A program made the translations under genes and the position numbers. Below, one piece after another: positions 6,022-44,919 of a stretch of DNA of 64,000 bases; position 1 is the first letter of the stretch; every line of letters begins with the position of its first letter. The notes beneath the pieces are model-generated. The model made no database searches. It worked only from the letters and a program-made list of their open reading frames with translations, and was not told the DNA's origin. The DNA comes from a virus (lineage: Duplodnaviria; Heunggongvirae; Uroviricota; Caudoviricetes), in the IMG/VR virus record IMGVR_UViG_3300032053_000007; one strand, given 5' to 3'.

Positions 6022-6167
6022 AACCAAAAAATACATGGGGATGTATAATACCACCACCGACCACTCAATGTGGTAGTAATCATAGAGCATGTATGAGATG
6101 GTTTGTACGACTTGCTCACGAATATTACAACTATTTTCATAAAATAGAGAAGGTCCAATTCGATTGA
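6018..6167 (+). CDS. small Cys-rich protein, junction-motif family (49 aa, ...KVQFD)
   Basis: ATGA/TTGA coupling on both sides. Confidence 0.4.
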   Translation: MKPKNTWGCIIPPPTTQCGSNHRACMRWFVRLAHEYYNYFHKIEKVQFD

Positions 6168-6343
6168 AATGCCTTAATTGCGGTATCGAATTCGAATGTG
6201 ATGCCAAGTTTAAAGACTGTAGAACCAAAGAATGTTTCTGTAGAAAATGTTGGAAGAAAACTCGTTCGTATATTGAGAATCCCCATGCATTTGATGACTG
6301 TTATAAAGTTCGTGTAGAGTCTGAAAAGGTGAAGTTCGATTGA
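6164..6343 (+). CDS. Zn-ribbon protein, CxxCxxxFxC...CFCxxC family (59 aa, ...KVKFD)
   Basis: TTG start in TTGA overlap; paralog of the 35184 family. Confidence 0.4.
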   Translation: MKCLNCGIEFECDAKFKDCRTKECFCRKCWKKTRSYIENPHAFDDCYKVRVESEKVKFD

Positions 6344-11651: not shown

Positions 11652-12304
11652 ACAAACTTATTTGCTTAATGCCAGTTTACAACTCGGCTGATGTAGTTCT
11701 AGAAGCCTTAAAATCTATAGACGGCAAAGTTGATGAGATATTTTGTCTTGACGGGCGATGGATTGGTACGAGTGGTTTAGACCATTCAACTGATGAAACA
11801 CAGGAAATAATTTTGAATTTTTCTGAACATTCAAAATCTCGTGTTTGTTACACAAGATTACGACCTATGCATCAATGGGAAGCTAGGACAGAATCATTAA
11901 AATTTTGTGGTGATGGAGATTGGGCAATTTTTCTCGACTCAGATGAGATAATAATCATGTGGGGCGATAATGTTCGTAAAACGCTTGAAATATCAAATGA
12001 GAAAGTATATCGTATTTATTGGAAATTTTATAAACCTCATACGGCACTTCTAAGATATGGACTTGTTAAAAAGACAGAAACAATACATTGGTCAACAGAC
12101 CATAGGAGAATATTTGATAAAGATGGTGAATTAGATATAGTACATGCTCCAATAATCAATATTGTATTTGACCATCAAAAAATAGCCGACATAAAGAAGA
12201 TGCGTAAACGAGAGGAAGAATACAAACATTGGCTTCACGAATATGAAACTACACATTGGAATTTAGAAGATGGTCCAGACCCCAATCAAATTGATTTGGG
12301 ATAA
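11648..12304 (+). CDS. GT2-like glycosyltransferase
   Basis: LMPVYNSADVV and DxD AIFLDSDEII. Confidence 0.5.
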   Translation: MNKLICLMPVYNSADVVLEALKSIDGKVDEIFCLDGRWIGTSGLDHSTDETQEIILNFSEHSKSRVCYTRLRPMHQWEARTESLKFCGDGDWAIFLDSDEIIIMWGDNVRKTLEISNEKVYRIYWKFYKPHTALLRYGLVKKTETIHWSTDHRRIFDKDGELDIVHAPIINIVFDHQKIADIKKMRKREEEYKHWLHEYETTHWNLEDGPDPNQIDLG

Positions 12305-12555
12305 TCAAGATAGGAATTAGGTGGGTAATAAATTTTCCCATCAAAACATGGTATTTCTTTATAGTTCAATTCTTTACAACAAAAGTACCGATGATGACCA
12401 TTCAGAATTATGGCTTTTCCATCTTCACGAAACATTACTCGCAAAGGCTCTTTTAATCCATTAACTCGAATATCTTCAAGTAATACCTTCTCAACTTTGG
12501 GATTTCCTCTTGGAATTATTTTGTCTATGGGAACCATAATTATAGGGATTTTCAA
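12286..12555 (-). CDS. ParB/Srx-like nuclease domain protein
   Basis: AIILNGHHRYFCCKELNYKEIPC; TTG start in TTGA overlap. Confidence 0.5.
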   Translation of the reverse strand: MKIPIIMVPIDKIIPRGNPKVEKVLLEDIRVNGLKEPLRVMFREDGKAIILNGHHRYFCCKELNYKEIPCFDGKIYYPPNSYLDYPKSI

Positions 12556-12671
12556 GTGAACTGCACCTTAGTTTTTTCTTTTATATGTTTACAATTCTCA
12601 CAGAGCCATCGTGTCGTCTTTGGCTTCTTGTATAATACTTGAACATCTTTGCCACACCCATCGCAAATCAA
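12552..12671 (-). CDS. small Zn-ribbon protein (39 aa, ...TKVQFT)
   Basis: Minus-strand junction motif at both ends. Confidence 0.4.
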   Translation of the reverse strand: MICDGCGKDVQVLYKKPKTTRWLCENCKHIKEKTKVQFT

Positions 12672-12850
12672 GTGAACTCGACCTTCTCTCCAAGTTCTCT
12701 ATAACCACATTCTTTAATTTGACCTTTACTTTTACAAGTGCATTTTTTACAAAGACAAACAGAAAGTCCTTTTGACACACTTTCCTCACACACTATATCA
12801 CCTTTACAGAAAAATTCTTTTCCACAATCAACACATTTCATTTTTATCAA
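12668..12850 (-). CDS. Zn-ribbon protein, CxxCxxxFxC family (...KVEFT)
   Basis: MIKMKCVDCGKEFFCKG...CKKCTC; paralog of 35184. Confidence 0.5.
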   Translation of the reverse strand: MIKMKCVDCGKEFFCKGDIVCEESVSKGLSVCLCKKCTCKSKGQIKECGYRELGEKVEFT

Positions 12851-12903
12851 TCGAACTGCACCTTTACCCTCTCATCTTCTTTTTTCGGAAATTTAGGTTT
12901 CAT
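12847..12903 (-). CDS. 18-aa leader mini-ORF MKPKFPKKEDERVKVQFD
   Basis: Consists almost only of the junction motif; TGA/TTG overlap with 12668-12850. Confidence 0.3.
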   Translation of the reverse strand: MKPKFPKKEDERVKVQFD

Positions 12904-13036
12904 TTTGTCGGCTGGAAGTAGAACAATGTTGTAATAGTCATCCCAACGATAGTTGCACATGGTAATCAATAGAACAATAACCATAAGACTTATATATACC
13001 TTTCTCCTTCTATATACAGATTGTGTAGTGATAAGC

Positions 13037-13201
13037 ATGGCAAAGCCATTTATTCCTTTGACAAAAGAGGAACAACAGGCTAGAGCCACTAGGATAGCAC
13101 AACGGGTTTGTACTTCATGCCGTTACGACTACGAAACTGGATGCAAAAAATGTATCTGGTATTTCATAATGAATGGAATGATAGGAGAGGAAGAATTTTG
13201 A
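13037..13201 (+). CDS. small Zn-binding protein
   Basis: CTSC...CKKC (track ORF 12953-13201). Confidence 0.4.
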   Translation: MAKPFIPLTKEEQQARATRIAQRVCTSCRYDYETGCKKCIWYFIMNGMIGEEEF

Positions 13202-15845: not shown

Positions 15846-15885
15846 TGAGTATGGAGTTTCTAGCGCAAGGTTTATAAGGGACGAA
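15846..15885 (+). promoter_or_regulatory. conserved promoter module driving array 1
   Basis: TTGAGTATGGAGTTTCTAGCGCAAGG-TTTATAAG-GGACG. Confidence 0.55.
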
Positions 15886-15910: not shown

Positions 15911-16153
15911 ATGAGCGACAATCGTAAAACCCCATTCGGAAAACTCAACAGACGAGCAGAGCAAATTGCTGGTGATATTGATACAAAGAAGTTGGAAGAC
16001 GAGATTGGTGAGGCATTAGCAGATGCATGGCAAGCTGGCTATGACGAAGGATGCGGTACAGCACATGATGAGGGTTATCAGGAAGGAAAGGCAGAGGGCA
16101 TAAGGGAAGCCGAAGAGAAGTTTAAAGCCAAAGAGAAAGTGACGTTCACATGA
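15911..16153 (+). CDS. acidic small protein (...EKVTFT)
   Basis: Junction motif; ATGA. Confidence 0.5.
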   Translation: MSDNRKTPFGKLNRRAEQIAGDIDTKKLEDEIGEALADAWQAGYDEGCGTAHDEGYQEGKAEGIREAEEKFKAKEKVTFT

Positions 16154-16287
16154 TGAAGCCACCGAAAGAATGTTTTGTTTGTAGAGGAATTGGTTACGTG
16201 ATAGAAAGAAATCCAGACCCAAAAGGAGATAGATGGATTAGAGTTATGTGTAGAAGATGTAAAGGAGCGGGGTTTCTGAGAGAATGA
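16150..16287 (+). CDS. Zn-ribbon mini-protein (45 aa)
   Basis: CFVC...CRRC; ATGA at both ends. Confidence 0.45.
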   Translation: MMKPPKECFVCRGIGYVIERNPDPKGDRWIRVMCRRCKGAGFLRE

Positions 16288-16502
16288 TTCATTGTGAATG
16301 GAGAGGGTGTTCTAAGAAATCGGAATATGTTATCAATTGGAAAAACGAGCCTAGACCAATAATCATTGAACCTTTTGCGGACCATAACTTTCTTTGTGGA
16401 ACACACTTCAAAAAATTACAGCATGATTTTCCTGAGACAAAACAGAAACCTATAGAAATCTATGAACTTACAGACCCAGTTATAAAGGTGACATTTACTT
16501 GA
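16284..16502 (+). CDS. small C/H-rich protein (...KVTFT)
   Basis: Junction motif; TTGA. Confidence 0.5.
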   Translation: MIHCEWRGCSKKSEYVINWKNEPRPIIIEPFADHNFLCGTHFKKLQHDFPETKQKPIEIYELTDPVIKVTFT

Positions 16503-16735
16503 ACTTTGACAAAATAAGGGCTGGCGACATTGTAATGTTCGAGCGAGAAGGAAAAATGCTTCATGGCAGAGTGTCAGCTAAAGGTTATCGTTATGTTGTT
16601 AGACCATTTGTGAATACTGATGAGCCAATTCTTTTCATTAGAGTGATTGAACATCCAGAATGGAAGGAAATAACTTTGTCTAGTAAAGAAGTAAAAAATA
16701 TTATCACAATAGGAGAAGTAGTGCATTTCACATGA
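16499..16735 (+). CDS. small protein (...VVHFT)
   Basis: TTG start; junction motif. Confidence 0.5.
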   Translation: MNFDKIRAGDIVMFEREGKMLHGRVSAKGYRYVVRPFVNTDEPILFIRVIEHPEWKEITLSSKEVKNIITIGEVVHFT

Positions 16736-16833
16736 ACAGAAAAGATATAGACTATCCTCTCATCTTTAGACGACTTCGCTGGTTTAAACGACTTGCTAAA
16801 GAATATCAGAAAGAAAAGGTGCAGTTCACATGA
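16732..16833 (+). CDS. 33-aa mini-protein (...EKVQFT)
   Basis: ATGA at both ends. Confidence 0.4.
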   Translation: MNRKDIDYPLIFRRLRWFKRLAKEYQKEKVQFT

Positions 16834-17102
16834 CAATCATACTTAAAAAGAACTTCAAGAAATGTCCTATGTGCGGCTCACGAAATTTAGCCCCTCATCT
16901 TCATAGCCAACATACTGAAAAGGAAGTACCGTGGGTTCGTTGCGAAGATTGTACGGCAATGTTTGTTAGAAGTTGTTCAAGTAATTCCCCAACAGAATCT
17001 ATTGTTATTTGGAATCGTAGAGGAAATGGCACTAAAATTGAGCCTGAAAGCACTAGCGTCTTTGTAACGCCAGAAGACCCAGAGGTTGTGCATTTTACAT
17101 GA
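16830..17102 (+). CDS. Zn-ribbon protein (...VVHFT); paralog of 19202
   Basis: CPMCGSRN...CEDC. Confidence 0.55.
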   Translation: MTIILKKNFKKCPMCGSRNLAPHLHSQHTEKEVPWVRCEDCTAMFVRSCSSNSPTESIVIWNRRGNGTKIEPESTSVFVTPEDPEVVHFT

Positions 17103-17347
17103 TTGGGTCAACTATTGCTAATATAAGAAAAGACGGACACACTAGATGTGTAGCAATGCATGGTCGGAGTGACCAATGCCCAAAAGAGGCAGAATTCTTA
17201 CTTTACTATAAAATACAAGGAAGAGTTAATGTTGAACCGTTTTGCGAAGATGACGCATATGAATTCTCAATGTATTTCTCGAATTATCTAGGGCTAAAAG
17301 TAATAATCGAAGAGATGAGACTTAAAGAGAGGGTACAATTTACATGA
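17099..17347 (+). CDS. small protein (...RVQFT); paralog of 18682
   Basis: Shared AYEFSMYFSNYLGLKV segment. Confidence 0.55.
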   Translation: MIGSTIANIRKDGHTRCVAMHGRSDQCPKEAEFLLYYKIQGRVNVEPFCEDDAYEFSMYFSNYLGLKVIIEEMRLKERVQFT

Positions 17348-17595
17348 TGAAGAGACCATGTGACAAGTGCAATAATATGTCTGATGCGTTAGTAAGAGTA
17401 CATCCAATTGATAAAAATGGACAAAATTTGGAAACTGTTTATCTTTGCCCAAATTGTCGTGCGGCGTGGGGAAAAGTTTATGATAAGGAAGTAAAGAATG
17501 TTGATTCTATTAAATTCCAAAGTGCGTGGACTAATTCTTGGGAAAACTTTATGAGTGGGAAATATGAAGAACGAGAAGTGGTGCAGTTTACATGA
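17344..17595 (+). CDS. Zn-ribbon protein (...VVQFT)
   Basis: CDKC...CPNC. Confidence 0.55.
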   Translation: MMKRPCDKCNNMSDALVRVHPIDKNGQNLETVYLCPNCRAAWGKVYDKEVKNVDSIKFQSAWTNSWENFMSGKYEEREVVQFT

Positions 17596-17774
17596 GTGCT
17601 GAACCAGTTCTTTTAACGCATCCTTCTAAACTGAACGTTAAATGGAGTATTTCGGGATGCACAGTACATAATTCGCTTAACAAAGAATATTGCATAAAAT
17701 CTTGCAGAATAAGAGAACATTGTACGGTTTATGTGTCAATTATGAATGAACGGGAGAAGGTTCAATTCACATGA
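17592..17774 (+). CDS. small Cys-containing protein (...KVQFT)
   Basis: Junction motif. Confidence 0.5.
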   Translation: MSAEPVLLTHPSKLNVKWSISGCTVHNSLNKEYCIKSCRIREHCTVYVSIMNEREKVQFT

Positions 17775-17998
17775 AACAACTCAAAGTTTTGCATTATGAT
17801 AAAGATTGTGGTTTGGTTCGTTTGACTACGCGAGAACATAGGTCTATACATTCTAATATTTGTTTCGGTTGTGGATATAATGGAGCAATAAAATGGAATT
17901 CTTATAACAAAGTTGTTCAATGTCACAATTGCGGACAGATAATAGCTAAACCAGAAAGTCATCCAGAATTAGAACGAGAGGTAGTGCAATTTACATGA
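17771..17998 (+). CDS. Zn-ribbon protein (...VVQFT)
   Basis: CFGCGY...CHNCGQ. Confidence 0.55.
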   Translation: MKQLKVLHYDKDCGLVRLTTREHRSIHSNICFGCGYNGAIKWNSYNKVVQCHNCGQIIAKPESHPELEREVVQFT

Positions 17999-18210
17999 CT
18001 GAACTACTAATTATTGGAATGATAAGTACAATTTGTGGTCTAATTATTGCAATGGTATTAGAGGCAAAAAGACAAAAACGCAAAATGATAAAAAGAGTAA
18101 GAATATATATCAAAGACCGTAATAAAACTTTACGTCTTTCAAAATGGAAAAGAATTGCTACTGAATGGAGAGAAGAATTAAAGAGACCTGTAAAGGTGAA
18201 GTTTACATGA
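17995..18210 (+). CDS. small membrane protein (...VKVKFT)
   Basis: N-terminal TM helix. Confidence 0.5.
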   Translation: MTELLIIGMISTICGLIIAMVLEAKRQKRKMIKRVRIYIKDRNKTLRLSKWKRIATEWREELKRPVKVKFT

Positions 18211-18560
18211 GCAAATTTTTACGGGCATATCTAGTTCAGGGTAACAAGAAATATGAGGGGATTTCATCAGTCGATATGACAGTAAAAGTGAATGGTGGCG
18301 ACATTTGGGAAATCGAACTTAAAATAGATAACGCACAGAAATTATGTAAAGATTGTGATAATAACAAAATGTTCAGGCTTCATATAGAAAGTACATCAAT
18401 GAAGGATTCAAAACCAATGATTGAAACTACTACAGGGGAAATACTAATAACTGAGATTGAATTTTTATCACAAACTCAATGTCGTGTAAATGGAATCGCA
18501 TCTAATATACGTTGGGCTTCCAGAGAAGGAATCACTAGAGAAAAGGTGCAATTTACGTGA
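18207..18560 (+). CDS. small protein (117 aa, ...EKVQFT)
   Basis: ATG in ATGA overlap (track ORF 18165-18560). Confidence 0.5.
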   Translation: MSKFLRAYLVQGNKKYEGISSVDMTVKVNGGDIWEIELKIDNAQKLCKDCDNNKMFRLHIESTSMKDSKPMIETTTGEILITEIEFLSQTQCRVNGIASNIRWASREGITREKVQFT

Positions 18561-18685
18561 AGTCAAAGTTATTTGATAATTGGGATACAGAAATTCAATA
18601 CAAAGCTAGAGTAATAGATTGGATGCTTGTTGTTGCAATTTGGAGACAGAACAAACACAGAAGGGAAAAGGTGCAGTTTACTTGA
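18557..18685 (+). CDS. 42-aa mini-protein (GTG start, ...EKVQFT)
   Basis: GTGA and TTGA overlaps. Confidence 0.35.
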   Translation: MKSKLFDNWDTEIQYKARVIDWMLVVAIWRQNKHRREKVQFT

Positions 18686-18930
18686 ATGGTCGTGTTTTAA
18701 CCTGTTGTCTCGCGGTTGATTGTAGAAAAGAATCAGAGATTATTTTGTCATACAAAATGGTGCGAAGCGAAGGGAGCACTCGTGAATTTGCTACAAAAAT
18801 AACACATATATGCCACGATGAATTTTGTGAAGAACATGCTTATGAGTTCGGTATGTATTTTTCAAATTACTTAGGACTAAAAGTAAGAACAAAGAGAATA
18901 AATAGACCAGTAAAGGTGCAGTTTACATGA
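18682..18930 (+). CDS. small protein (...VKVQFT); paralog of 17099
   Basis: TTG start (track ORF 18619-18930). Confidence 0.5.
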   Translation: MNGRVLTCCLAVDCRKESEIILSYKMVRSEGSTREFATKITHICHDEFCEEHAYEFGMYFSNYLGLKVRTKRINRPVKVQFT

Positions 18931-19157
18931 AACGATGGTATCATAAAAAGTGTTGTTATTGCCATTGCAGTTTTATGTGTCACGGAGAATGTGGAATAGA
19001 ACTTAAAGCTAAACAAGAAACTGCTTGCTATTGTGGGGCTTGCATTCAAGAATTTGAGAGAGAGAAGGGTGGCAGAGAAATTGTCTCTGGAAAAGAGCGT
19101 TGTAGAAGTAGAATGGATTTTGGAATTGATGCAAAGGAGAAGGTGGAATTCACATAG
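18927..19157 (+). CDS. Cys-rich protein (...KVEFT, TAG stop)
   Basis: CCYCHC...CYCGAC; junction mutated to ACATAG. Confidence 0.5.
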   Translation: MKRWYHKKCCYCHCSFMCHGECGIELKAKQETACYCGACIQEFEREKGGREIVSGKERCRSRMDFGIDAKEKVEFT

Positions 19158-19201
19158 CTCTCAATACTTTTGGTTTAAAATTCAACTTCACTAAATGCCC
19201 T

Positions 19202-19405
19202 ATGTGCCATTCACGAAATATAGAAAAGAAAGAAGTATGTATGGAATGTAAAGATTGTCATGCTCAGTTTGTTCGAAGAGTACATCTTTTCGACAAAGAA
19301 TCATTGACGTGTATTTGGAATAGAAAAACAGATGGGACATATTTTGAGCATAGCAACAAAGTTTTTATAGTACCAGAGGACCCAGAGGTAGTGCAGTTCA
19401 CATGA
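19202..19405 (+). CDS. Zn-ribbon protein (...VVQFT); paralog of 16830 with lost coupled start
   Basis: Homology continues upstream in frame to 19154 with no start codon. Confidence 0.45.
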   Translation: MCHSRNIEKKEVCMECKDCHAQFVRRVHLFDKESLTCIWNRKTDGTYFEHSNKVFIVPEDPEVVQFT

Positions 19406-19692
19406 CTGTTTGGATTTGTCCGTTCTGTAAAAGTGAACTGATATTTACTGGAAAACGAAATGGCATAGGTTGGTTTGGAGATTTAGGCGCGAGTTTCTAT
19501 GCTTGTGAGTGCGGGCACAATATTATTAGCGAGGCATTCAAAAATGAAGATGGGACTCCAAAGATTTTCTATGATAATAAATGGGAACATCTTCTTAATG
19601 ACAAATGGAGATTTTATGATGAAAGGGATATGTGGGGAACGCCTAAAGATGTGCCGAAAGAATTAAAGAGAATAAAGGTGCAGTTTACTTGA
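19402..19692 (+). CDS. Zn-ribbon protein (...IKVQFT)
   Basis: CPFCKSE...CECGHN. Confidence 0.55.
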   Translation: MTVWICPFCKSELIFTGKRNGIGWFGDLGASFYACECGHNIISEAFKNEDGTPKIFYDNKWEHLLNDKWRFYDERDMWGTPKDVPKELKRIKVQFT

Positions 19693-19868
19693 CTGAATAT
19701 AAATGTACTTGTTGCACACTTACCAAAGGATGCATATTACGGACTAACAAACATGGAGAAATTTTTTGCACTCATGGTGGTAAAAGTATCAAAATTCCAA
19801 TTGAAAGGGAAATAAAACGTGGGGATTTAAAAGTGATAATACCGAGAGAGGTAGTGCAATTCACATGA
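19689..19868 (+). CDS. Cys-rich mini-protein (58 aa, ...VVQFT)
   Basis: TTGA and ATGA overlaps. Confidence 0.4.
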   Translation: MTEYKCTCCTLTKGCILRTNKHGEIFCTHGGKSIKIPIEREIKRGDLKVIIPREVVQFT

Positions 19869-20104
19869 GAGCTAATTGGCTTAAAGGTAGAAAATGTGAC
19901 CGTTGTGGAAAAGAATCTGAATTGGTTTTAGGCAAATTTGAACATTTTCTTTGCAGAGAATGTAGTACAGAATGGGGTAATTTTATACAACCATTTCTTT
20001 CCAAACTTCATGATGTAGCGAGAACTCCTAAATGGTCTGAATTATGGGAAAAAATTTACGCCAAGTTTTTGGCTGAATGGATAGAGAAGGTACAATTCAC
20101 TTGA
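19865..20104 (+). CDS. Zn-ribbon protein, CxxC...LCxxC..W..F family (...KVQFT)
   Basis: CDRCGKE...CREC. Confidence 0.55.
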   Translation: MRANWLKGRKCDRCGKESELVLGKFEHFLCRECSTEWGNFIQPFLSKLHDVARTPKWSELWEKIYAKFLAEWIEKVQFT

Positions 20105-20385
20105 CCGAAGAAATAAATCTTGAAAACCTCATTATTAAGGTGCGAAAAAGTACGCCTAAAAATCATAGACGAGCAAAAATTTGGGTTAAAAAAGGTTCGG
20201 CTAAAGTGGAGATTACTGACCAAGAAAAGTGGCTTAATGTAGAAGATATGTGTTGCGTTCTTAATCACGAGTTTCTTCATTGGATAATTACAAATATGAC
20301 AAAAACAAGACCTAAACAATATGACAAATACTTAGAGAGTCTTGGATTGTACTACCACGAAATATTAAGGGAAATATGGCAATAA
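20101..20385 (+). CDS. small HExxH motif protein
   Basis: TTG start in TTGA overlap; LNHEFLHWII. Confidence 0.45.
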   Translation: MTEEINLENLIIKVRKSTPKNHRRAKIWVKKGSAKVEITDQEKWLNVEDMCCVLNHEFLHWIITNMTKTRPKQYDKYLESLGLYYHEILREIWQ

Positions 20386-20564
20386 GGGTAGTGAATAAGA
20401 TACCATTTGAAGAGATAAAGGAACGTGCAAAATGTAAGGAATGTTTAAGGGAAGAATACTGCAAGCGTATTCCAGTAAACGACCTTATCGTTCAGGCAAT
20501 AAAGGAGAATGGCAAGTGCCCAGACTTTATTACAACAGCTTCCCCGCCACCCGCTTCCTTCTGA
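20376..20564 (+). CDS. small Cys-containing protein
   Basis: Last gene of array 1a. Confidence 0.4.
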   Translation: MAIRVVNKIPFEEIKERAKCKECLREEYCKRIPVNDLIVQAIKENGKCPDFITTASPPPASF

Positions 20565-20978
20565 GCATATACCAACTTTCTCTGGGATAGTCCCCTACCC
20601 CTAGCTCCCCTAGACGTTCAAAACTCCCTGAAAAAAAGACGTTTTCAGTTATTTTCTTTTCTCGAATCCTTAGTAAATCTAAATCGAAATGCTCAGGAAA
20701 TAGGAAATAAAAATAATACCAAAATAACAATCATAACAGAAATCACAAAGTTCGCCGACCAAAATCAAATTTTCGCCTGCGCGCCGCCTATGTGTGGGTA
20801 TGTGGTTTCAAAAAGTGTGACCGATGGTTTTTTCCTAAAGGTTTTTCTGCGTTACCCTTTTCCGTGTTTCCGTCTGGGTCACTTTCGAGGTTACGGTTAG
20901 TGTAACTTTCTGTGTCATTGAAAGTTCAACTCTTCCTTATATAATACGAGTTGCACCATATAAACCTTTCGGTAGTTA

Positions 20979-20994
20979 TTAATCAACTGATTAA
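20979..20994. promoter_or_regulatory. palindromic site TTAATCAACTGATTAA
   Basis: Perfect inverted repeat. Confidence 0.5.
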
Positions 20995-21310
20995 AAGTTT
21001 GGGGCATGGAGCCGAGGGGGTGGAAAAAAGCCATCTGACCCCCGAACTGAATCGAACTCGGCAATACGAGCAAATTTCGGGGCGATTTGGCTCCCGCCCT
21101 TTCCCACCGAGAAAATTTCCCATAGGGTGAGTTTCGAACTGAGTCGAATTTCCGAAAACGAGCAAATTTCGAGGCAGATAATTTTTACAGGTCTCGCAAA
21201 TGACCATCACTTTTTTGCTGGTTGGGGATGTTTGTATGGAGAGAATGGCTTTCGAAATTTTTCGAAGTGCCAAAAAAGCTCCCAACCCTGCTGGTCATGG
21301 AAACCGAATG

Positions 21311-21326
21311 TTTAATCAACTGATTA
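21311..21326. promoter_or_regulatory. palindromic site TTAATCAACTGATTAA
   Basis: Perfect inverted repeat. Confidence 0.5.
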
Positions 21327-21392
21327 AAATAGTTCCTTTTATGACCTTCGGCATGGAGAAGTCCATGCAAACCAGCGATACTCATAGGGTTT

Positions 21393-21430
21393 TGAGCATG
21401 GGAGTTCTTACTAAACCTTTATATAGGGGA
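21393..21430 (+). promoter_or_regulatory. conserved promoter module driving array 1b
   Basis: TTGAGCATGGGAGTTCTTACTAAACC-TTTATATA-GGGG. Confidence 0.5.
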
Positions 21431-21459
21431 AAGCTATATCTCTAGGTAGTGACCGATTA

Positions 21460-21681
21460 ATGGGAAAAGTTAGAGATACAATGAAGCAGATAGGAATCAG
21501 GAACAGACCGAAAACCAATCTCGATAATGCTCAATGTCTCATTCAATGGGTTGCAAAGAAACACCCAAAAGTCTTAACTGAATATCTTGACTCCGAATTT
21601 TTCAAGATTCTAACGAGAACAAACCAATACGTTAGCGTCATGGAAGCAATGCACTTTCTTGATACAGGGAAGGATGAATAA
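21460..21681 (+). CDS. hypothetical protein (73 aa)
   Basis: Track ORF. Confidence 0.45.
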   Translation: MGKVRDTMKQIGIRNRPKTNLDNAQCLIQWVAKKHPKVLTEYLDSEFFKILTRTNQYVSVMEAMHFLDTGKDE

Positions 21682-22337
21682 TGATTGAGGAAAAGAGAAA
21701 GAAAATTATAGTTACAATGGAACGGTTGCAAGACCTTCACCATTTAGCTATTCGACACCCGTTTCGTGTGAGTAGAAAAGGTACAACAGATGAATATTAT
21801 GACGTTCTTGATGAACTCGGTGAAGTTTTTCTAGCGTTAGTAAAGAAGTCTTTCGAGAACTCGGACATACCTTATCCGTGGTATCCGACAGGTAGATGGA
21901 TTTGGTCACACCAATATTGGTCATGCCTTCTTTCTCTCAGAGGGGAGATTGACGCTCAAACACCCGAATACATGGAAACTGTCGAACATTACCTAAATAC
22001 AATTCATCAATTCATGGAAAGAGAAAAACTCGAATCTTTCTATATGCACTCTGGTTATTCAACTTATGACAAGAAACAGCATGAAGAAAATCCCATGCGA
22101 AGTATGTTGTATGTCTATTATCCGAAAAGTAAAAGATGGGATTTGACAAAGTTCTGGGCTGAACGGGAATTGGAATATTGGAAGAAAGAACTAGCCGATG
22201 ATTTGGAACAAGTCAGGAAAGCAAAAAAAGATAAGGGACAATTCGTAAAAGTAAACGTCAACTATTATGAACGAAACACATATTACGATAGAAGAAGAAT
22301 AAAGGAATTGAAGGAGATAATAAATGGTGAAGCATAG
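21681..22337 (+). CDS. hypothetical protein (218 aa)
   Basis: Track ORF; TAATG overlap. Confidence 0.5.
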   Translation: MIEEKRKKIIVTMERLQDLHHLAIRHPFRVSRKGTTDEYYDVLDELGEVFLALVKKSFENSDIPYPWYPTGRWIWSHQYWSCLLSLRGEIDAQTPEYMETVEHYLNTIHQFMEREKLESFYMHSGYSTYDKKQHEENPMRSMLYVYYPKSKRWDLTKFWAERELEYWKKELADDLEQVRKAKKDKGQFVKVNVNYYERNTYYDRRRIKELKEIINGEA

Positions 22338-22427
22338 ATTCATTCCGCGTCCTTTCATTGAGGACGATGAACGCCCGACTAGACCGATGCCTCACGGGAA
22401 TCCATTCGACTTAGGAGAACTTGATTA

Positions 22428-22661
22428 ATGCCTAAGAAATTCTACGCGCGTTGTGGTTTGTGCAAGAAAAACTTTGCAACAAAGAGAGGCGTTGATACTC
22501 ATTTTAAAAGTGAAGAACATCTCAGACGACTTGCAAGATGGTATGAACTTTGTACGGAAGGTAAAGAAAAAGGATTCACTTATATTTTAGGAAACATGGA
22601 AGGAAGTGCAAAGGAAGTTCTTGCAGAAGAGGAACGTCCAGAAGTTGTTAGCTTTGACTAA
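22428..22661 (+). CDS. C2H2-like Zn-finger protein (...VVSFD)
   Basis: CGLCKKNF...HFKSEEH. Confidence 0.5.
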   Translation: MPKKFYARCGLCKKNFATKRGVDTHFKSEEHLRRLARWYELCTEGKEKGFTYILGNMEGSAKEVLAEEERPEVVSFD

Positions 22662-22893
22662 AAGAAACTGTGAGAAATGTGGACGAGTTTTCACGGTGAC
22701 AGAAGATAAACTAAAATATCCTCATTCTATAGACGCTATTCTTTGTGGTTCTTGTCTAAGAAAATGGCTAGAGTTTTTTGCTGACCATAATACATTTTTT
22801 GTTGCTAAATATCCTAAGAAAATAAACCCAACTTGGGAAGTATTTAAGGGGAAAATTGCAGACTATACTAGAGAGAAGGTTGTGTTCACTTGA
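22654..22893 (+). CDS. Zn-ribbon protein (...KVVFT)
   Basis: TTG start (track ORF 22606-22893); CEKCG...CGSC. Confidence 0.45.
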   Translation: MTKRNCEKCGRVFTVTEDKLKYPHSIDAILCGSCLRKWLEFFADHNTFFVAKYPKKINPTWEVFKGKIADYTREKVVFT

Positions 22894-23078
22894 CGACTTG
22901 GCAAATTGTTAAGTGTGACGTTTGCGGACGGTCTTATGAACAATACGGGGACGCTCACGATATTGGTGAACAAAACTTCTGCTGTGAACATTGCCTCTGG
23001 ACAGCAGTTAGTAATAGTGGAGAACCACAACCTAGACATACTTGCATAGAGGTAAAGGAAAAGGTGAACTTTACTTGA
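22890..23078 (+). CDS. Zn-ribbon protein (...KVNFT)
   Basis: CDVCG...CCEHC. Confidence 0.5.
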   Translation: MTTWQIVKCDVCGRSYEQYGDAHDIGEQNFCCEHCLWTAVSNSGEPQPRHTCIEVKEKVNFT

Positions 23079-23263
23079 GTGGTTTATCAATTAATCGTGG
23101 TTGCTTCAACTGTAAGAAATACAAAAATTGTCGTGGTTCCATAGATAGTGAAAAAGGAATAGACCCAAAAGAAATTCAGAAAGGTAGAAATAATATACCT
23201 TATCGTGCTGGCTGTTGTTGCCAAAATTACGAGTTTGTCAAAGAAAAGGTGCTGTTCACATGA
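23075..23263 (+). CDS. Cys-rich protein (...KVLFT); paralog of 46391
   Basis: GCFNC...GCCCQNYEF. Confidence 0.5.
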   Translation: MSGLSINRGCFNCKKYKNCRGSIDSEKGIDPKEIQKGRNNIPYRAGCCCQNYEFVKEKVLFT

Positions 23264-23535
23264 TTTGTGCTAAATGCGGAAAGGAAAACGGAAAAGCCAC
23301 GATGTTTAGGGAAACGGGGACAACCAACATTCTTAAACTAAATCCTGTATTTTATATTGGTGCTGATTGTGGTTGTTTTTGGAAGTGGTTGAAATTTCTT
23401 AAAGAGAAAGACCCAAATATCAAAATTGAAAAGAAAAGATGGGGCGCGTCTATAATATTTTCAAAGGGAATAGGTGAAGCAAACGAATTAGCCAAAGAGT
23501 TCGCGGACGATTTTGTGAAGGTGCAATTCACTTGA
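23260..23535 (+). CDS. Zn-binding protein (...VKVQFT)
   Basis: ATG in ATGA overlap; CAKCGKENGK. Confidence 0.5.
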   Translation: MICAKCGKENGKATMFRETGTTNILKLNPVFYIGADCGCFWKWLKFLKEKDPNIKIEKKRWGASIIFSKGIGEANELAKEFADDFVKVQFT

Positions 23536-23735
23536 AATGCCAAATTCCGATGTGCAATAAAGAAGCTGTAAAAGAAGTTCACGTTTACAAAAAGGTGAAC
23601 AGAGTAGAAATAATTTTTCTTTGTGAAGAACATTTTAAACAAGAAAATAAATGGCTCAGATATAAGAATATACAGCGAGAGATTTTCGACTTGAAACCTA
23701 AAGTGGATGATAGAATAAGGGTGCAATTTACTTGA
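23532..23735 (+). CDS. small protein (...RVQFT)
   Basis: TTG start; junction motif. Confidence 0.5.
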   Translation: MKCQIPMCNKEAVKEVHVYKKVNRVEIIFLCEEHFKQENKWLRYKNIQREIFDLKPKVDDRIRVQFT

Positions 23736-23968
23736 AACCGAAAAATAGACAAAACGTAAAATGTCCTAAATGTGGAAACGGATGGAATGAATGGGGATTT
23801 GCTTTTGAGCAAAAAGACATAAAATGGGTTCCGAACGGACATAAATTCTTAATGGGATATAAAGTTGTTGAAGGACACGACCCTTATCCTCTTAAAGTAA
23901 CTTGCAAGAAATGTGGTAAAGTTTTCAGAATAGAGTATGTTGATAAGGAAAAGGTCGAGTTCACTTGA
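23732..23968 (+). CDS. Zn-ribbon protein (...KVEFT)
   Basis: CPKCGN...CKKCGK. Confidence 0.55.
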   Translation: MKPKNRQNVKCPKCGNGWNEWGFAFEQKDIKWVPNGHKFLMGYKVVEGHDPYPLKVTCKKCGKVFRIEYVDKEKVEFT

Positions 23969-24288
23969 CTTACTATTGTCCCTTCTGCAAACAAAAAATG
24001 TTTCATCAACCGAACAACCAAAGCGTAACTCAAGACGAAAAACTGAAAGCCAAAGTTGGAGACACTTTCAAATGTAGTTGCAGTATTTTTCAAGAAGATT
24101 CAGACGGGCAAGTTTACCAACTAAATTCGTGGAAACTTGAAAATGATGGATGGTATCATTTCGGCTCAACAAACGGCAAACCAATTAGAGAACATTTTCA
24201 CATGCACAACGAAAATGAGTGGGTAAAAATTTGTGGCAGAACTAGCGAACCATTTGATACACTTCCAGAGGTTGTGAGTTTTACTTGA
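23965..24288 (+). CDS. Zn-binding protein (...VVSFT)
   Basis: CPFCKQ. Confidence 0.5.
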   Translation: MTYYCPFCKQKMFHQPNNQSVTQDEKLKAKVGDTFKCSCSIFQEDSDGQVYQLNSWKLENDGWYHFGSTNGKPIREHFHMHNENEWVKICGRTSEPFDTLPEVVSFT

Positions 24289-24443
24289 GCAAAAGAATCA
24301 CTATGAGTATAGACTACGCTGACATTCAGAAAGCCATAGAAATAATGGAGAAAGACGGGTTCTTGGTTGCTATTAGAGGAGATAAAATGATTGTCATGGG
24401 AAAACCAATAAAGGATACAAAGGAGAAGGTACAGTTTACATGA
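24285..24443 (+). CDS. 52-aa mini-protein (...EKVQFT)
   Basis: TTGA and ATGA overlaps. Confidence 0.4.
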   Translation: MSKRITMSIDYADIQKAIEIMEKDGFLVAIRGDKMIVMGKPIKDTKEKVQFT

Positions 24444-24580
24444 CCGAACTTCCAGAACATAAGTGCAAAGGTTGTCAAATGGATTGTTGGGGCAAAGAAT
24501 GGGACGATGAGAAGAAACAATATTTCTGTATAGCTGACGGATTTTATATTCAACAGAAAGAAAGAGTTGAGTTTACTTGA
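24440..24580 (+). CDS. 46-aa Cys mini-protein (...RVEFT)
   Basis: CKGC...C. Confidence 0.4.
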   Translation: MTELPEHKCKGCQMDCWGKEWDDEKKQYFCIADGFYIQQKERVEFT

Positions 24581-24870
24581 CAGACCTGAAAATTTGTTCT
24601 GTTTGTAATGAGGAAAAGACATGCCATTCTATTGCCCCATATACTATATGTAAAGATTGTTTTTCAAAATGGACACACTTTCTTGACAAAGGAAGTAGAA
24701 TACAAAGATTAAATGATGCTCGTAAAAATTATAACAATAGTGCAAAATTTGGAAATGATAACGATGAGGGTGAAAAAGCGTGGAAAGAATTCAGCGAAAT
24801 TTGGAACAAATATTTTGAAGAGTTTTTGAAAAACATAGAAACCAGAAAAGAGAAGGTTGCATTTACATGA
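24577..24870 (+). CDS. Zn-ribbon protein, CxxC...CxxC..W..F family (...KVAFT)
   Basis: CSVCNE...CKDCFSKW. Confidence 0.55.
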   Translation: MTDLKICSVCNEEKTCHSIAPYTICKDCFSKWTHFLDKGSRIQRLNDARKNYNNSAKFGNDNDEGEKAWKEFSEIWNKYFEEFLKNIETRKEKVAFT

Positions 24871-25013
24871 ATGCCAAAATCACTATGGCTTATACAGGAT
24901 TAACGTGTGACGGATGCGGAAGAAAACAGATTGTGGTAGTTCTTAAAGGAAGAAAGTGGCTTTGTTATGACTGTATGCACAAAATGGACGTGGAGAAAGT
25001 AACCTTTACTTGA
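24867..25013 (+). CDS. 48-aa Zn-ribbon mini-protein (...EKVTFT)
   Basis: CDGCG...CYDC; stop inside the TGAGCATGG module. Confidence 0.45.
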   Translation: MNAKITMAYTGLTCDGCGRKQIVVVLKGRKWLCYDCMHKMDVEKVTFT

Positions 25014-25046
25014 GCATGGTTCTTCTACCACAACCTTTATATAGTA
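25011..25046 (+). promoter_or_regulatory. terminator/promoter module after array 1
   Basis: TGAGCATGGTTCTTCTACCACAACC-TTTATATA. Confidence 0.45.
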
Positions 25047-35183: not shown

Positions 35184-35405
35184 ATGATTAAGGTCAGATG
35201 TGCGAATTGCAAAAAAGAATTTTACTGTAATGGTAATGATATGTGTTCTGTCGGCATTCGAGTTTCACAATTTCACAAAAAGATACATGAATGTTATTGT
35301 GAAGAATGTACGAGAAAACAACGCTTAGATACCGCGAAAGGAATTAAAAAATGCGGTTACAGAAAAGTTGAGGACGTAGAACCAGAAATGGTGAAATTCA
35401 CATGA
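35184..35405 (+). CDS. Zn-ribbon protein, CxxCxxxFxC...CYCxxC family (...MVKFT)
   Basis: CANCKKEFYCNG...CYCEEC. Confidence 0.55.
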   Translation: MIKVRCANCKKEFYCNGNDMCSVGIRVSQFHKKIHECYCEECTRKQRLDTAKGIKKCGYRKVEDVEPEMVKFT

Positions 35406-35725
35406 TTGTCGGATTAAAAATCTTAGATGATTTTCAAGTTGGGGACGCGGAAGAGTTAGTCGAACAACTGAGAAAACGCGGTTTGCTAGATTTGACTCTT
35501 GAACAAGTGAAAGAGAAAGTTAAGAAAGAATATAATGGCACAGATTTTGAGGACGTAGTTTGTAACGATGATTGTATAGACTATATTCTCAAAGATTTAG
35601 CTGACGGTTGTTTTTATTGGGAATACCACAATAGTTCAGAACAATTTACGATAAACATAATTGACCCTAATAAACCATTCACTAAAGACGGTAAAGAACC
35701 AAAGGTTAAGGTGCAATTCAGTTGA
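35402..35725 (+). CDS. acidic small protein (...VKVQFS)
   Basis: Junction motif. Confidence 0.5.
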   Translation: MIVGLKILDDFQVGDAEELVEQLRKRGLLDLTLEQVKEKVKKEYNGTDFEDVVCNDDCIDYILKDLADGCFYWEYHNSSEQFTINIIDPNKPFTKDGKEPKVKVQFS

Positions 35726-35949
35726 GTTTACCAACACAGGGCTGTTTCAACTGTTTGTTTAACAACCGAAAAAAAGGATATTGTGATACGAAAGGAGAAC
35801 AATATGGAACGAGATATGAGAATATAGGAAAACACAGCGAAAAATCCATTAAGACGACAGGAAGCAGTTGTATAACTTGGAAACAAGGAATAGACCTTTT
35901 CGCAAAATGGGATAAAGAGAAAGTAAAGGAAAGGGTGAAGTTTACTTGA
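35722..35949 (+). CDS. small protein (...RVKFT)
   Basis: TTG start. Confidence 0.5.
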   Translation: MSLPTQGCFNCLFNNRKKGYCDTKGEQYGTRYENIGKHSEKSIKTTGSSCITWKQGIDLFAKWDKEKVKERVKFT

Positions 35950-36119
35950 AGTGTAAAAATTGTAAAAAAGAGTTTAATTGCAAGCAATCATGTGATGCGA
36001 AAAATAGAAAGATGAACCAATGTTTATGTCCTGATTGTTGGGTGAAAAAGAAAGAAAGACTTGTAGAATGTCTTAAAGTCAAGCAACCAAATGAAAGGGA
36101 AATAGTGATGTTCACTTGA
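35946..36119 (+). CDS. Zn-ribbon mini-protein, CxxCxxxFxC family (57 aa, ...IVMFT)
   Basis: CKNCKKEFNCKQ...CLCPDC. Confidence 0.45.
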   Translation: MKCKNCKKEFNCKQSCDAKNRKMNQCLCPDCWVKKKERLVECLKVKQPNEREIVMFT

Positions 36120-36265
36120 ACAAAATAATACCCAGAGGACAAGCCAACAGAGAAGAGTTGAAAGTTGGAGATGTCTTTCACAAAAACGGTTATCGTTATC
36201 TGGTTCAAAAAATAGTTCATGGGATTCCATATTTAGAAGAACAAGAGGAAGTGCAATTCACTTGA
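36116..36265 (+). CDS. 49-aa mini-protein (...EEVQFT)
   Basis: TTGA overlaps. Confidence 0.4.
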   Translation: MNKIIPRGQANREELKVGDVFHKNGYRYLVQKIVHGIPYLEEQEEVQFT

Positions 36266-36390
36266 ATCGAGAACAGATAATCAAAAATCTAAAATCTGTT
36301 CCAACAGGAAATGTCCAACAGAATCAGCAAATAATTGCTCAGGCATTAATTTACATCTTGGAGAATAAAGAAAAGGTGTCCTTCACTTGA
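36262..36390 (+). CDS. 42-aa mini-protein (...EKVSFT)
   Basis: TTGA overlaps. Confidence 0.4.
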   Translation: MNREQIIKNLKSVPTGNVQQNQQIIAQALIYILENKEKVSFT

Positions 36391-36551
36391 GAAGAATGCA
36401 ACTGCAAGCTAACATAAAAACGGGCGTAACTACTCTGAAAGTTTTGATATGCACAAACTATTTACAAGACAGATGCCAAAAGTGTGACATGTATTCTGTG
36501 TGCGATGTTAGTGGCAAAAAGCCTAAAAAGGAAGTTGTGTGTTTCACTTGA
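36387..36551 (+). CDS. 54-aa Cys mini-protein (...VVCFT)
   Basis: TTGA overlaps. Confidence 0.4.
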   Translation: MRRMQLQANIKTGVTTLKVLICTNYLQDRCQKCDMYSVCDVSGKKPKKEVVCFT

Positions 36552-36763
36552 CCGAAAAAATTCCGCTAGAAGAAGATTATGACCCCCCAGATTATAGAGA
36601 GAAACTTACTTGTTATAATTGTGAGAAGTTCGCAAGTAGTATTAGAGAAATAGGCAATGGGGGAAGAGTAAAATTTGCTCACAAGTTTTGGTGGCTTTGT
36701 CCCGAATGTTTCAAAAAGCTAATTTTGAAAGAAAAAAGAAAAGAGAGGGTTGAGTTCACATGA
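36548..36763 (+). CDS. Zn-ribbon protein (...RVEFT)
   Basis: CYNC...CPEC (track ORF 36539-36763). Confidence 0.5.
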   Translation: MTEKIPLEEDYDPPDYREKLTCYNCEKFASSIREIGNGGRVKFAHKFWWLCPECFKKLILKEKRKERVEFT

Positions 36764-37047
36764 CACGTAAAGTTAGTTTAAGATGGCTTGCGTATTCTAA
36801 TGACCCTCTTGCAGTAAAATTTAGAGGGGGTATAAGTGGGGGTTCAGAGGAATGTGCTCTTTGCTCTATGTTTTTTGAAGATGACTACGATGACGGAGAA
36901 CATATATCTAAATGTTCATTTGAAGAGATACACGAAAGCGAGATAGAACACTTTCAACAGATGGCAGATGAGATGATTTTGGATATTAAAATTACTTCAC
37001 TAGGCGATATAAGGAACGCTATAAAAGAAGTAGTTCAGTTCACTTGA
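36760..37047 (+). CDS. small acidic protein (...VVQFT)
   Basis: Stop inside the next promoter module. Confidence 0.5.
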   Translation: MTRKVSLRWLAYSNDPLAVKFRGGISGGSEECALCSMFFEDDYDDGEHISKCSFEEIHESEIEHFQQMADEMILDIKITSLGDIRNAIKEVVQFT

Positions 37048-38067: not shown

Positions 38068-38343
38068 GTGTCTGCAATGGAAGGAAGTAAAGCGTTTCGC
38101 GCTCAGATAGACAAACTTGTTAAGCAACGAACAAAACTTAAACTAGACGATGACGTAAAAATATTGAGGGGGGAAAACAAAGGCAAGATAGGGTTCATTG
38201 ACAAAATAGGCTCTATAACAGACATTAAAGACGTAAATTCTACACACGTTCAATATCTTGTTCGTGTTGGCAAAGACCTTCTTGCATACGATGATTTTGA
38301 ATTACAGGTAACAATGAAACCTGAGAAAGTGGACTTCACATGA
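38068..38343 (+). CDS. small protein (...EKVDFT)
   Basis: Junction motif. Confidence 0.5.
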   Translation: MSAMEGSKAFRAQIDKLVKQRTKLKLDDDVKILRGENKGKIGFIDKIGSITDIKDVNSTHVQYLVRVGKDLLAYDDFELQVTMKPEKVDFT

Positions 38344-44442: not shown

Positions 44443-44448
44443 GTAAAA

Positions 44449-44613: not shown

Positions 44614-44619
44614 TAACTT

Positions 44620-44912: not shown

Positions 44913-44919
44913 CTAAAAT

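Follow-up and report, generated by a model that had tools for sequence, protein, structure and literature searches.

Overlapping micro-genes with a shared C-terminal tail in a large DNA virus: a diverse cassette pool with a few expanded families

Introduction

We analysed a 64,000-nucleotide stretch of viral DNA (the window; Caudoviricetes, IMG/VR record IMGVR_UViG_3300032053_000007), in which about 93 small open reading frames (ORFs) of 26-126 amino acids (aa) lie head-to-tail on the plus strand, with three more on the minus strand (12552-13089). These 96 small genes form arrays that are a large, diverse pool of cassettes with a few moderately expanded families. No fewer than 84 of the small proteins end in E-[KV]-V-x-F-[TDS]. 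This tail is dual-coded: the same codons hold a peptide motif and the Shine-Dalgarno (SD) sequence of the next cistron. The explanation that fits best overall combines coupled operons, old protein families, a dual-coded tail, shuffling at the gene junctions and an effector role for the products. As a whole we consider it fairly probable, and our confidence is higher for the architecture and the families than for the functional part.

Results

Operons of overlapping micro-genes

An earlier sequence-only reading centred on positions 15911-25013, and every coordinate it gave maps to a real ORF. The span consists of two runs, 15911-20385 (20 cistrons) and 22428-25013 (12 tail cistrons), the second of which continues an operon that begins at 21460. 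It holds 32 small genes, 11 of them in the families A-E described below, and most members of A and B lie outside it. The arrays, together with the promoters of the first two operons (BRE stands for B recognition element), are:

15847-15877, plus strand: operon 1 promoter, GAGTATGG-N5-TTCTAG-N7-TTTATAA, made up of an upstream element and, 33 nt ahead of the ATG at 15911, a BRE/TATA-like box
15911-20385, plus strand: operon 1, 20 micro-protein cistrons (33-117 aa) with NTGA overlaps as chain links
21396-21425, plus strand: promoter module of operon 2, GCATGGGAGTTCTTACTAAACCTTTATATA
21460-25013, plus strand: operon 2, genes 21460, 21681 and 22324, then the 12 tail cistrons of 22428-25013
35184-37047, plus strand: further tail-gene array
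38068-41624, plus strand: further tail-gene array of 20 cistrons, with the most A and B members of any array
48648-51907, plus strand: further tail-gene arrays
12552-13089, minus strand: inverted mini-array of three tail genes, adjoining a ParB_N-like gene

In operon 1 the tail E-[KV]-V-x-F-T is present on 18 of the 20 cistrons; 16150 and the last gene, 20101, are without it. Promoter modules occur at operon heads only. They have the form GCATGG-N4-TTCT-N~8-AAnnTTTATA(A/T)(A/G), lie 33-45 nt ahead of operon-first starts and are confined to the plus strand (sites include 15847-15877, 21396-21425, 25014-25043, 42655-42684, 44922-44951 and 52327-52356). The module of operon 1 is also found ahead of the operon-first genes 5205, 11009, 25819, 31554, 33563, 42715 and 44986.

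A tail that is also a ribosome-binding site

The tail heptapeptide is [KRP]-E-[KV]-V-x-F-T, whose last residue can be T, D or S, encoded by dissimilar codons. The stop codon is TGA in 74 of the 81 plus-strand tail genes and usually overlaps the next start as NTGA. Among 84 junctions the overlapping start is ATG in 41 and TTG in 38. An overlapping start is present at 68 internal junctions. As codon 2 begins with the A of TGA, almost all cistrons have T, K, N, I, S, R or M as their second residue.

The nucleotide signal is visible in position and in codon choice. AAGGTG sits 8 nt before the next start, and non-overlapping genes of this virus carry AAGGT 7-9 nt before theirs. The lysine codon of the tail is AAG rather than AAA by 39:4, compared to 30% AAG in gene bodies, and the valine codon is GTG in 56% of cases, compared to 14%.

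The peptide is constrained as well. In the junction logo, GAR nnG GTN nnn TTY ACW TGA, first and second codon positions are invariant and synonymous sites are free. GGT is absent from 17 of 81 junctions, where V-x-F-T is kept. Tails without an overlapping downstream cistron keep the peptide in 13 of 13 cases and GGT in 6 of 13, compared to 58 of 68 for GGT at internal junctions (Fisher p=0.004). In a more distant relative, L010, four consecutive genes end in EK[IV]xFT, although they have TAA or TAG stops, 10-nt spacers and an SD sequence each. These observations point to selection on the tail peptide itself.

In the structure models of families A and B the tail has a predicted local distance difference test score (pLDDT) below 50, which fits a flexible linear motif. 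It is attached to unrelated folds, including the membrane protein 17995, and is found in none of the 22 plus-strand ORFs of at least 140 aa. None of the analogies considered (HbYX motif, PDZ ligand, PIP box, tail of single-stranded-DNA-binding protein) fits the motif well.

In archaea and bacteria, overlaps of this type have been shown to support termination-reinitiation, and SD motifs inside upstream genes contribute to the coupling (PMC6728339). The junctions of the window share with the described ATGA/TGATG overlaps (PMC6728339, PMC10666635) the 4-nt overlap and an SD motif within the upstream gene. In contrast to them, about 70 consecutive junctions share six codons, TTG starts are nearly as common as ATG (38 versus 41 of 84), and the upstream codons are also constrained as peptide. 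From this geometry we infer that termination-reinitiation operates in the operons of the window. We did not find an earlier description of a universal dual-coded C-terminal tail, and literature searches for similar arrays and for the sample accessions returned nothing.

Similarity between cassettes exceeds tail and cysteine spacing

All-versus-all BLASTP was run on 93 of the small proteins with the last 8 residues trimmed. The number of pairs was 14 at E<=1e-3, 27 at E<=0.01 and 67 at E<=0.1. At the same thresholds, ten sets of fully shuffled sequences yielded 0-1, 0-1 and 0-9 pairs, and ten shuffles that left every cysteine in place yielded 0-1, 0-3 and 4-14. Since the real counts exceed both kinds of shuffle, the similarity goes beyond the shared tail and the cysteine spacing. 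The recurring families of tiny cysteine-rich paralogues that the sequence-only reading had aligned by hand are thus borne out, and their likeness persists when the C-terminal hexapeptide is removed. The three best pairs are D (5e-11), C (1e-9) and E (3e-7).

Family membership was assessed with leave-one-out hidden Markov model (HMM) profiles, each member being scored together with 30 of its own cysteine-fixed decoys. Every member of family A (11), B (12) and E (4) ranked first. The proposed resemblance to viral multigene families therefore holds beyond composition. Self-trained iterative HMMs were dropped as evidence in favour of this procedure, because cysteine-fixed decoys also scored in them (up to E 8e-8).

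The proposal that the arrays grew from only a few expanded families is not supported as it stands. Families A and B account for about 23 of the 96 genes, A-E for about 31 and all paralogue groups for about 40, the remainder being singletons. When small proteins of the window and its relatives are pooled, 391 unique sequences fall into 188 clusters at E<=1e-4, the largest being family B with 27 members. Among 326 tail ORFs of the relatives, the A pattern occurs 24 times and the B pattern 19 times. A and B are lineage-specific. Paralogues share 25-50% identity, are dispersed rather than tandem, and appear to be old.

The name Zn-ribbon is also loose, as A looks like an 8-cysteine finger and B like a treble clef rather than plain ribbons. 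Of the 93 proteins, 33 have fewer than four cysteines and 60 have at least four. The low-cysteine proteins include the acidic 15911, the membrane protein 17995 and beta-rich proteins. Several singletons weakly match zinc-ribbon Pfam models. Judging from their sequences, about two-thirds of the micro-proteins are small zinc-binding modules.

Family A

A six-frame scan with the pattern CxxCxxxFxC...CxCxxC finds exactly 11 ORFs in the window, and 200 shuffled proteomes contain no match. With leave-one-out profiles, every one of the ten members proposed earlier is recovered and 18927 is added. All 11 score 19-37 bits, with a decoy maximum of at most 25, and the family is sharply bounded. Each member has 8-10 cysteines; C6, C9, F13, C15, C28, C30 and C33 are invariant and no histidine is conserved within the family. 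Family A is an 8-cysteine finger that probably binds two zinc ions. Its members are:

6164-6343, plus strand: 8-cysteine finger, 21.8 bits (decoy maximum 16.7)
12668-12850, minus strand: member in the inverted mini-array, 36.7 bits
18927-19157, plus strand: member missing from the earlier list and the only one within 15911-25013, 19.4 bits (rank 1/31)
35184-35405, plus strand: 32.1 bits
35946-36119, plus strand: 31.1 bits
39502-39717, plus strand: marginal zf-MYND match, 28.1 bits
40024-40233, plus strand: 23.7 bits
40370-40567, plus strand: sequence modelled with AlphaFold2, 29.7 bits
41045-41260, plus strand: 29.9 bits
44620-44847, plus strand: between the VWA-like gene and the MoxR gene, 31.2 bits
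50817-50996, plus strand: 35.6 bits

Ten of the 11 members have no Pfam hit. The zf-MYND model (PF01753) is reached by 39502 with 23.1 bits (cut-off 22.7), and six other members tested do not match it. We rejected an assignment to zf-MYND, because this threshold is passed by one member, marginally, and the family, which has no conserved histidine, does not show the C4-C2HC ligand pattern. Eight conserved cysteines are what family A has in common with binuclear cross-brace fingers (MYND, PHD), but it lacks their histidine ligands. The AlphaFold2 model is of low confidence (pLDDT 58), and Foldseek against the PDB found no significant match to it: PHD fingers came out on top, none with E below 1.

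Word-indexed searches of 5.8 billion proteins returned 11 family A proteins; an exhaustive HMM search of 1.84 billion representatives returned 79 clusters. Of the 73 new clusters, 44 carry the tail and the others have variant tails (EKVEFQ, EKVVFN, PFIFR) or none; three proteins have two A domains in tandem. AFVFR is a further variant in other metagenomic lineages. The variants suggest lineage-specific tail types that keep F at position -2. Because A domains exist with and without the tail, the two are separable. Family A is best treated as a putative small domain that has not been described before.

Family B

The B-type pattern occurs in 10 ORFs and in none of the shuffles. These are five of the six members proposed earlier plus 17344, 22606/22654, 30836, 38758 and 40770. 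The same five outscore all 30 of their cysteine-fixed decoys, and the sixth, 40564, is weak (8.3 bits, rank 3/31). Leave-one-out profiles add seven members (17344, 22606, 23260, 30836, 38758, 40770 and 50602), which gives 12 members at 13-34 bits. Around them lies a weak penumbra of borderline sequences; 50993 fails the leave-one-out test.

17344-17595, plus strand: member that passes the Pfam DUF7569 threshold, 30.4 bits
19865-20104, plus strand: sequence modelled with AlphaFold2, 23.2 bits
22654-22893, plus strand: 32.7 bits; the longest ORF begins at 22606, and the gene likely starts with the TTG at 22654, which overlaps the upstream stop
23260-23535, plus strand: divergent, 14.2 bits (decoy maximum 6.9)
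24577-24870, plus strand: 21.4 bits
30836-31060, plus strand: divergent, 14.6 bits
38340-38606, plus strand: 26.3 bits
38758-38985, plus strand: 28.2 bits
39812-40027, plus strand: 34.3 bits
40564-40773, plus strand: proposed member with weak membership, the 40564 discussed above
40770-41048, plus strand: divergent with a long insert, 13.6 bits
50602-50820, plus strand: divergent, 13.1 bits
51453-51695, plus strand: 18.7 bits

Family B has four cysteines, and the W after the second CxxC is invariant. Its model (pLDDT 74, moderate) consists of a zinc knuckle and a hairpin; the second CxxC starts a helix (31-51), which is followed by a second helix. In this model the protein looks like a C4 finger with a helical hairpin, similar to a treble clef. 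Foldseek against the PDB gave no match with E below 0.7. At the level of sequence profiles, McsA and a small CPxCG protein of haloarchaea are similar to the zinc module; the small CPxCG zinc-finger protein 8q5b is hit with 7.8e-4 over that module. DUF7569 is matched by 17344 (33.2 bits, cut-off 27), while seven other members tested have no hit at E<=0.05; a literature search on DUF7569 returned nothing. Word-indexed searches of the 5.8 billion proteins returned 15 family B proteins.

The nearest relatives of this design are archaeal one-domain zinc-finger micro-proteins (Pfam DUF7569, CPxCG_zf, HVO_0758; PDB 8q5b), which are likewise C4 modules of fewer than 100 aa. However, DUF7569 is passed by a single member out of 12, the B architecture also includes a W-rich helical hairpin and the tail, and the proteins of the window are viral and massively co-encoded.

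Pairs C and D, family E and other paralogues

All three smaller groups seen by the sequence-only reading are supported by BLASTP. The coordinates of these and of the additional pairs are:

16830-17102, plus strand: pair C, copy 1, passes Pfam Lar_restr_allev (E 1e-9 to 19202)
19202-19405, plus strand: pair C, copy 2, 63% identical to a single copy in the relative L004
17099-17347, plus strand: pair D, copy 1 (E 5e-11)
18682-18930, plus strand: pair D, copy 2, without orthologue in the relatives L003 or L004
23075-23263, plus strand: family E (GCFNC...GCCC), 32.9 bits
46391-46606, plus strand: family E, ATG at 46391 with GGTGA before it; the longest ORF begins at 46361
35722-35949, plus strand: family E, added in this analysis, 13.4 bits (decoy maximum 8.2)
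51229-51456, plus strand: family E, added in this analysis, 19.4 bits
36548-36763 and 51692-51907, plus strand: extra paralogue pair (WLCPxCFxK), E 6e-5
24440-24580 and 38982-39128, plus strand: extra paralogue pair, E 1.7e-4

Further BLASTP pairs are 14247/46603 and 19402/23965. Pair D is 47% identical; the 16-mer that had been quoted as shared matches at 15 of 16 positions and contains no cysteine. Pair E (23075/46391) grows to four members under leave-one-out.

Pair C provides the sole direct functional lead. The protein 16830 matches Lar_restr_allev (PF14354) with 31.8 bits (cut-off 28.6) over model positions 2-57 of 58, and NCBIfam anti_R_Lar (TIGR03655) with 4.8e-6; its L003 orthologue carries the same precomputed Lar hit. 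It thus lies above the Pfam gathering threshold over the full model of the Lar restriction-alleviation family. On the other hand, that family was defined on bacterial prophage proteins, both pair C proteins carry an extra tail, and 19202 has no hit to the Lar models. L003 carries only the C1 type and L004 only the C2 type; both are present in the window. The two copies may thus be diverged alleles that were acquired or retained, rather than products of a local duplication. Other database matches of the small proteins are to generic zinc modules (E 1e-3 to 1e-5).

Evolution of the cassettes

In 19 orthologous cassette pairs between the window and L003 the ratio of nonsynonymous to synonymous substitution rates (dN/dS) is 0.09-0.66 (pooled 0.26). 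The micro-ORFs are hence real genes under purifying selection. We also considered TGA recoding and frameshifted polyproteins and rejected them: the frame changes at a start codon, orthologue dN/dS is below 1, and L010 has TAA or TAG stops and spacers.

The synonymous divergence, dS, varies between neighbouring cassettes from 0.09 to 1.12, which indicates mosaicism at the scale of cassettes. As the sequence-only reading had proposed to compare, copy number and gene order do differ between related genomes. Gene order is different in the window, L003 and L004. L003 lacks 17771, 18682, 19202, 19402, 19689 and 19865, has four cassettes that are absent from the window and carries 17995 at a different position; L004 shows yet another cassette order. 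The alignment blocks between the three end within the shared junction, a pattern that is suggestive of junction recombination but is also expected where genes abut.

A 36-bp tandem duplication (46591-46672) lies inside gene 46603. It contains a decayed junction copy (GGTTCAATTCGCTTGA) and duplicates a CPSCGS zinc knuckle. It looks like the footprint of slippage or unequal exchange across a junction that created a second knuckle. Apart from this duplication, scans for tRNAs, Rfam families and tandem repeats gave nothing that bears on the arrays.

The element, its relatives and its host

As the sequence-only reading had suggested, the element is a large DNA virus; its genome measures at least 152 kb. 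The same proteins are present on the 151.8-kb metagenomic contig from which the window derives, whose flanks encode glycosylation genes, a trypsin-like protease (directly upstream of the window), ParB_N, dCMP deaminase, a class II ribonucleotide reductase (RNR) and an HNH gene. Within the window itself are genes for an RNA ligase, a KaiC-like ATPase, an SPFH protein and a MoxR ATPase; neither a capsid nor a host marker was found there. Neither megablast of the span 15911-25013 nor tblastn of a 575-aa protein matched any of 50,697 phage records, and a PDB sequence search with the 575-aa protein returned nothing.

Finding relatives in metagenomes needed a DNA pattern of two junctions, which recovered 34 further stretches with 293 tail ORFs in peat and sediment metagenomes. 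A single-junction pattern run against IMG/VR and GTDB genomes gave, among the matches listed, an isolated single match per contig; these are most likely chance, save one on the contig of a known relative, and those listed gave no clue to the host. In IMG/VR the sole relative is the distant L010, whose MoxR is 70% identical to that of the window.

The host is probably an archaeon, a reading suggested by the BRE/TATA-like promoter modules and by the Alba gene encoded by L010 (E 3e-17). The class II RNR has mixed best hits as a host signal.

A MoxR AAA+ ATPase and a partner of 558-575 aa lie beside tail genes both in the window (42715-45873) and in L010 (2723-7827). The L010 copy of the partner has a sub-threshold VWA match (E 0.0015; 19.2 bits, cut-off 23.8). 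This MoxR/VWA-like pair is a candidate handler of tail-tagged or zinc-binding proteins.

Intergenic regions and the inverted mini-array

The promoter modules come in two TATA flavours, TTTATAAGG and TTTATATAG, which possibly mark temporal classes. Several operon-terminal tails run directly into a module (TTGA-GCATGG). Beside the modules lies a palindrome, TTAATCA-NN-TGATTAA, with 24 copies compared to 1.1 expected by chance, all intergenic (5097, 15728, 20979, 21312, 25370, 25421, 33389, 41730, 44897, 47281, 49285, 52306, 52371, 55336 and others). The palindrome is likely an operator for a dimeric regulator.

Between operons 1 and 2, about 860 bp (20591-21454) contain no convincing ORF and no Rfam match and are 87% identical to L003. 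Relatives have a transglutaminase-core gene just upstream of this region, which the window lacks. It might serve as an origin or in regulation, or encode a non-coding RNA.

The inverted mini-array comprises, on the minus strand, the ParB_N-like gene (12286-12555), a tail gene at 12552-12671 and the family A gene at 12668-12850. The stretch 12293-12979 is absent from L003 and L004, and the mini-array looks like an insertion in this lineage.

Discussion

How the arrays may work

We propose that each operon would be transcribed from a conserved BRE/TATA-type promoter and that the ribosome would move down the message by terminating and re-initiating at the NTGA overlaps. In this way 12-20 micro-proteins (33-117 aa) would be made together from one mRNA, in an archaeal host that would live in anoxic peat or sediment. 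The families would have arisen by old duplication and divergence, supplemented by whole cassettes that related viruses exchanged with one another. The junction, which is uniform and about 21 nt long, would serve as a ready-made homology patch, with which cassettes could be gained, lost, duplicated or moved without breaking frame or coupling. The growth of arrays and families would thus be a consequence of this patch. The flexible tail would be the signal by which a single partner, common to all the proteins, docks or handles them. As to function, we tentatively suggest that the micro-proteins are co-expressed accessory effectors for host takeover or anti-defence with a common docking tail, a suggestion to which we give a little less than even weight.

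Several points weigh against this account. Coupling and co-expression are deduced from geometry, and the terminal residues of the tail could act in translation, through the efficiency of termination or re-initiation. The anti-defence or takeover role is drawn from one Lar-matching family, other matches being to generic zinc fingers. Confidence in the structure models is moderate for B (pLDDT 74) and low for A (pLDDT 58), and neither has a significant fold match. Abutting genes force alignment breakpoints into the junctions, and the assignment of the host is indirect.

Alternative explanations

If the families are real, the conserved C-terminus could still be only the imprint of a translation signal, that is, of an SD sequence and a re-initiation context before NTGA. 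The position of AAGGTG 8 nt before the overlapping start, the preference for AAG (39:4) and GTG (56% versus 14%), the presence of GGT at 58 of 68 internal junctions and the known help of intragenic SD motifs in coupling (PMC6728339) are all expected under such an imprint. We nevertheless find it unlikely, as V, F and T are invariant while third positions vary freely. V-x-F-T also outlasts GGT at 17 of 81 junctions, and operon-terminal genes keep the tail and lose the SD sequence. In L010 the tail exists without overlaps and next to separate SD sequences. In the other genes of the virus studied here, the spacer from SD sequence to start is arbitrary. That the families are convergent, being unrelated proteins with only zinc-binding CxxC spacing and a tail in common, has very little probability. 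Admittedly, cysteines hold most of the profile information, and cysteine-fixed A decoys reach 25 bits, or E 8e-8 against a self-trained model. However, under leave-one-out none of the 30 decoys made for each protein scores as high as the protein itself, for all A and 12 B members, real pairs exceed cysteine-fixed shuffles about 20-fold at E<=0.01, non-cysteine positions are invariant (F13 in A, the W after the second CxxC in B), and the 16-mer of pair D has no cysteine at all.

Alternatively, common ancestry may be granted and the function placed elsewhere. The small proteins could bind nucleic acids or be structural (genome-condensing, virion-internal or regulatory), with a tail that directs them to capsid or DNA. 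Their median isoelectric point (pI) of 8.8, with 62 of 96 above pI 8, is in keeping with such roles; zinc fingers commonly bind nucleic acids, the 24 palindromes by the promoters need a binding protein, and there are weak matches to zinc modules of TFIIB, Spt4, Elf1, TFS and ribosomal proteins. None of these hits is significant once 96 queries are allowed for, though, and 16 of the proteins are acidic and one is a membrane protein. About 190 clusters with fast cassette turnover are unexpected for structural or core regulatory proteins, and we regard these roles as rather improbable. We give hardly any credence to a last option, in which the arrays encode precursors like those of ribosomally synthesized and post-translationally modified peptides (RiPPs). 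Modified or exported cysteine-rich peptides would then derive from a hypervariable N-terminal part, and the tail would be a C-terminal follower recognised by a processing enzyme. Many diverse cysteine-rich products do share one recognition-like sequence, two members weakly match the methanogen cysteine-rich peptide model TIGR04165 (0.0018), and the window is closely preceded by a gene for a trypsin-like protease. Yet the products have 33-126 aa and features of folded domains, one third have few or no cysteines, and the larger ORFs showed no genes of the radical-SAM, cyclodehydratase, lanthipeptide or transporter kind.

Relation to known systems

The modular shuffling of hyperplastic regions in T4-type phages, which is mediated by promoter early stem-loops (PeSLs; PMC2839356, PMC4122927), is the closest described analogue of these cassette arrays. 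Both systems consist of small, mostly ORFan genes, each bounded by a short conserved motif, and in both close relatives differ by the insertion, deletion or replacement of whole cassettes at the motifs. A PeSL, however, is an intergenic promoter-terminator unit that makes each cassette its own transcription unit, whereas the motif of the window combines a coding tail, SD sequence, start and stop within one long transcript. For the window, recombination at the motif and mini-circles are conjectural.

Similar in another respect are the multigene families of large DNA viruses. Examples are MGF110 and MGF360 of African swine fever virus and the repeat-protein families of poxviruses or mimivirus. 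There, too, a genome holds several lineage-specific families of accessory paralogues, whose copy number varies between relatives. In contrast to these, the units of the window have 33-126 aa, families make up only about 40% of the arrays, the paralogues appear old and are dispersed in polycistronic operons rather than near genome ends, and members share one C-terminal tail across families.

What the tail may mean

A bolder version of the docking proposal, which we consider doubtful, takes the tail as a universal address tag. A virus of archaea would attach it to about 85 unrelated micro-proteins in each genome (over 300 in the lineage as a whole), and one receptor would recognise them all through a peptide whose codons double as ribosome-binding site and recombination patch. 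The tag could serve to load the proteins into the capsid for co-injection, to dock them on a host hub, or to have them removed at a set time by a protease or an AAA+ machine such as the MoxR/VWA pair. If true, the tail would define a way of delivering and diversifying effectors that has not been described for any virus.

Archaeal viruses are rich in small zinc-finger ORFans of unknown role. The arrays make such genes tractable, as they offer defined families in a uniform operon architecture. Viral multigene families and coupled operons are already known; the unusual feature is the universal dual-coded tail. Its junction is a clean natural case of dual coding, in which one set of codons specifies both peptide motif and ribosome-binding site, and it shows how a viral pool of accessory genes may expand and shuffle without breaking polycistronic translation. 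A shared tail would imply one common partner, and hence a single pull-down with the tail peptide could reveal the target of the whole repertoire.

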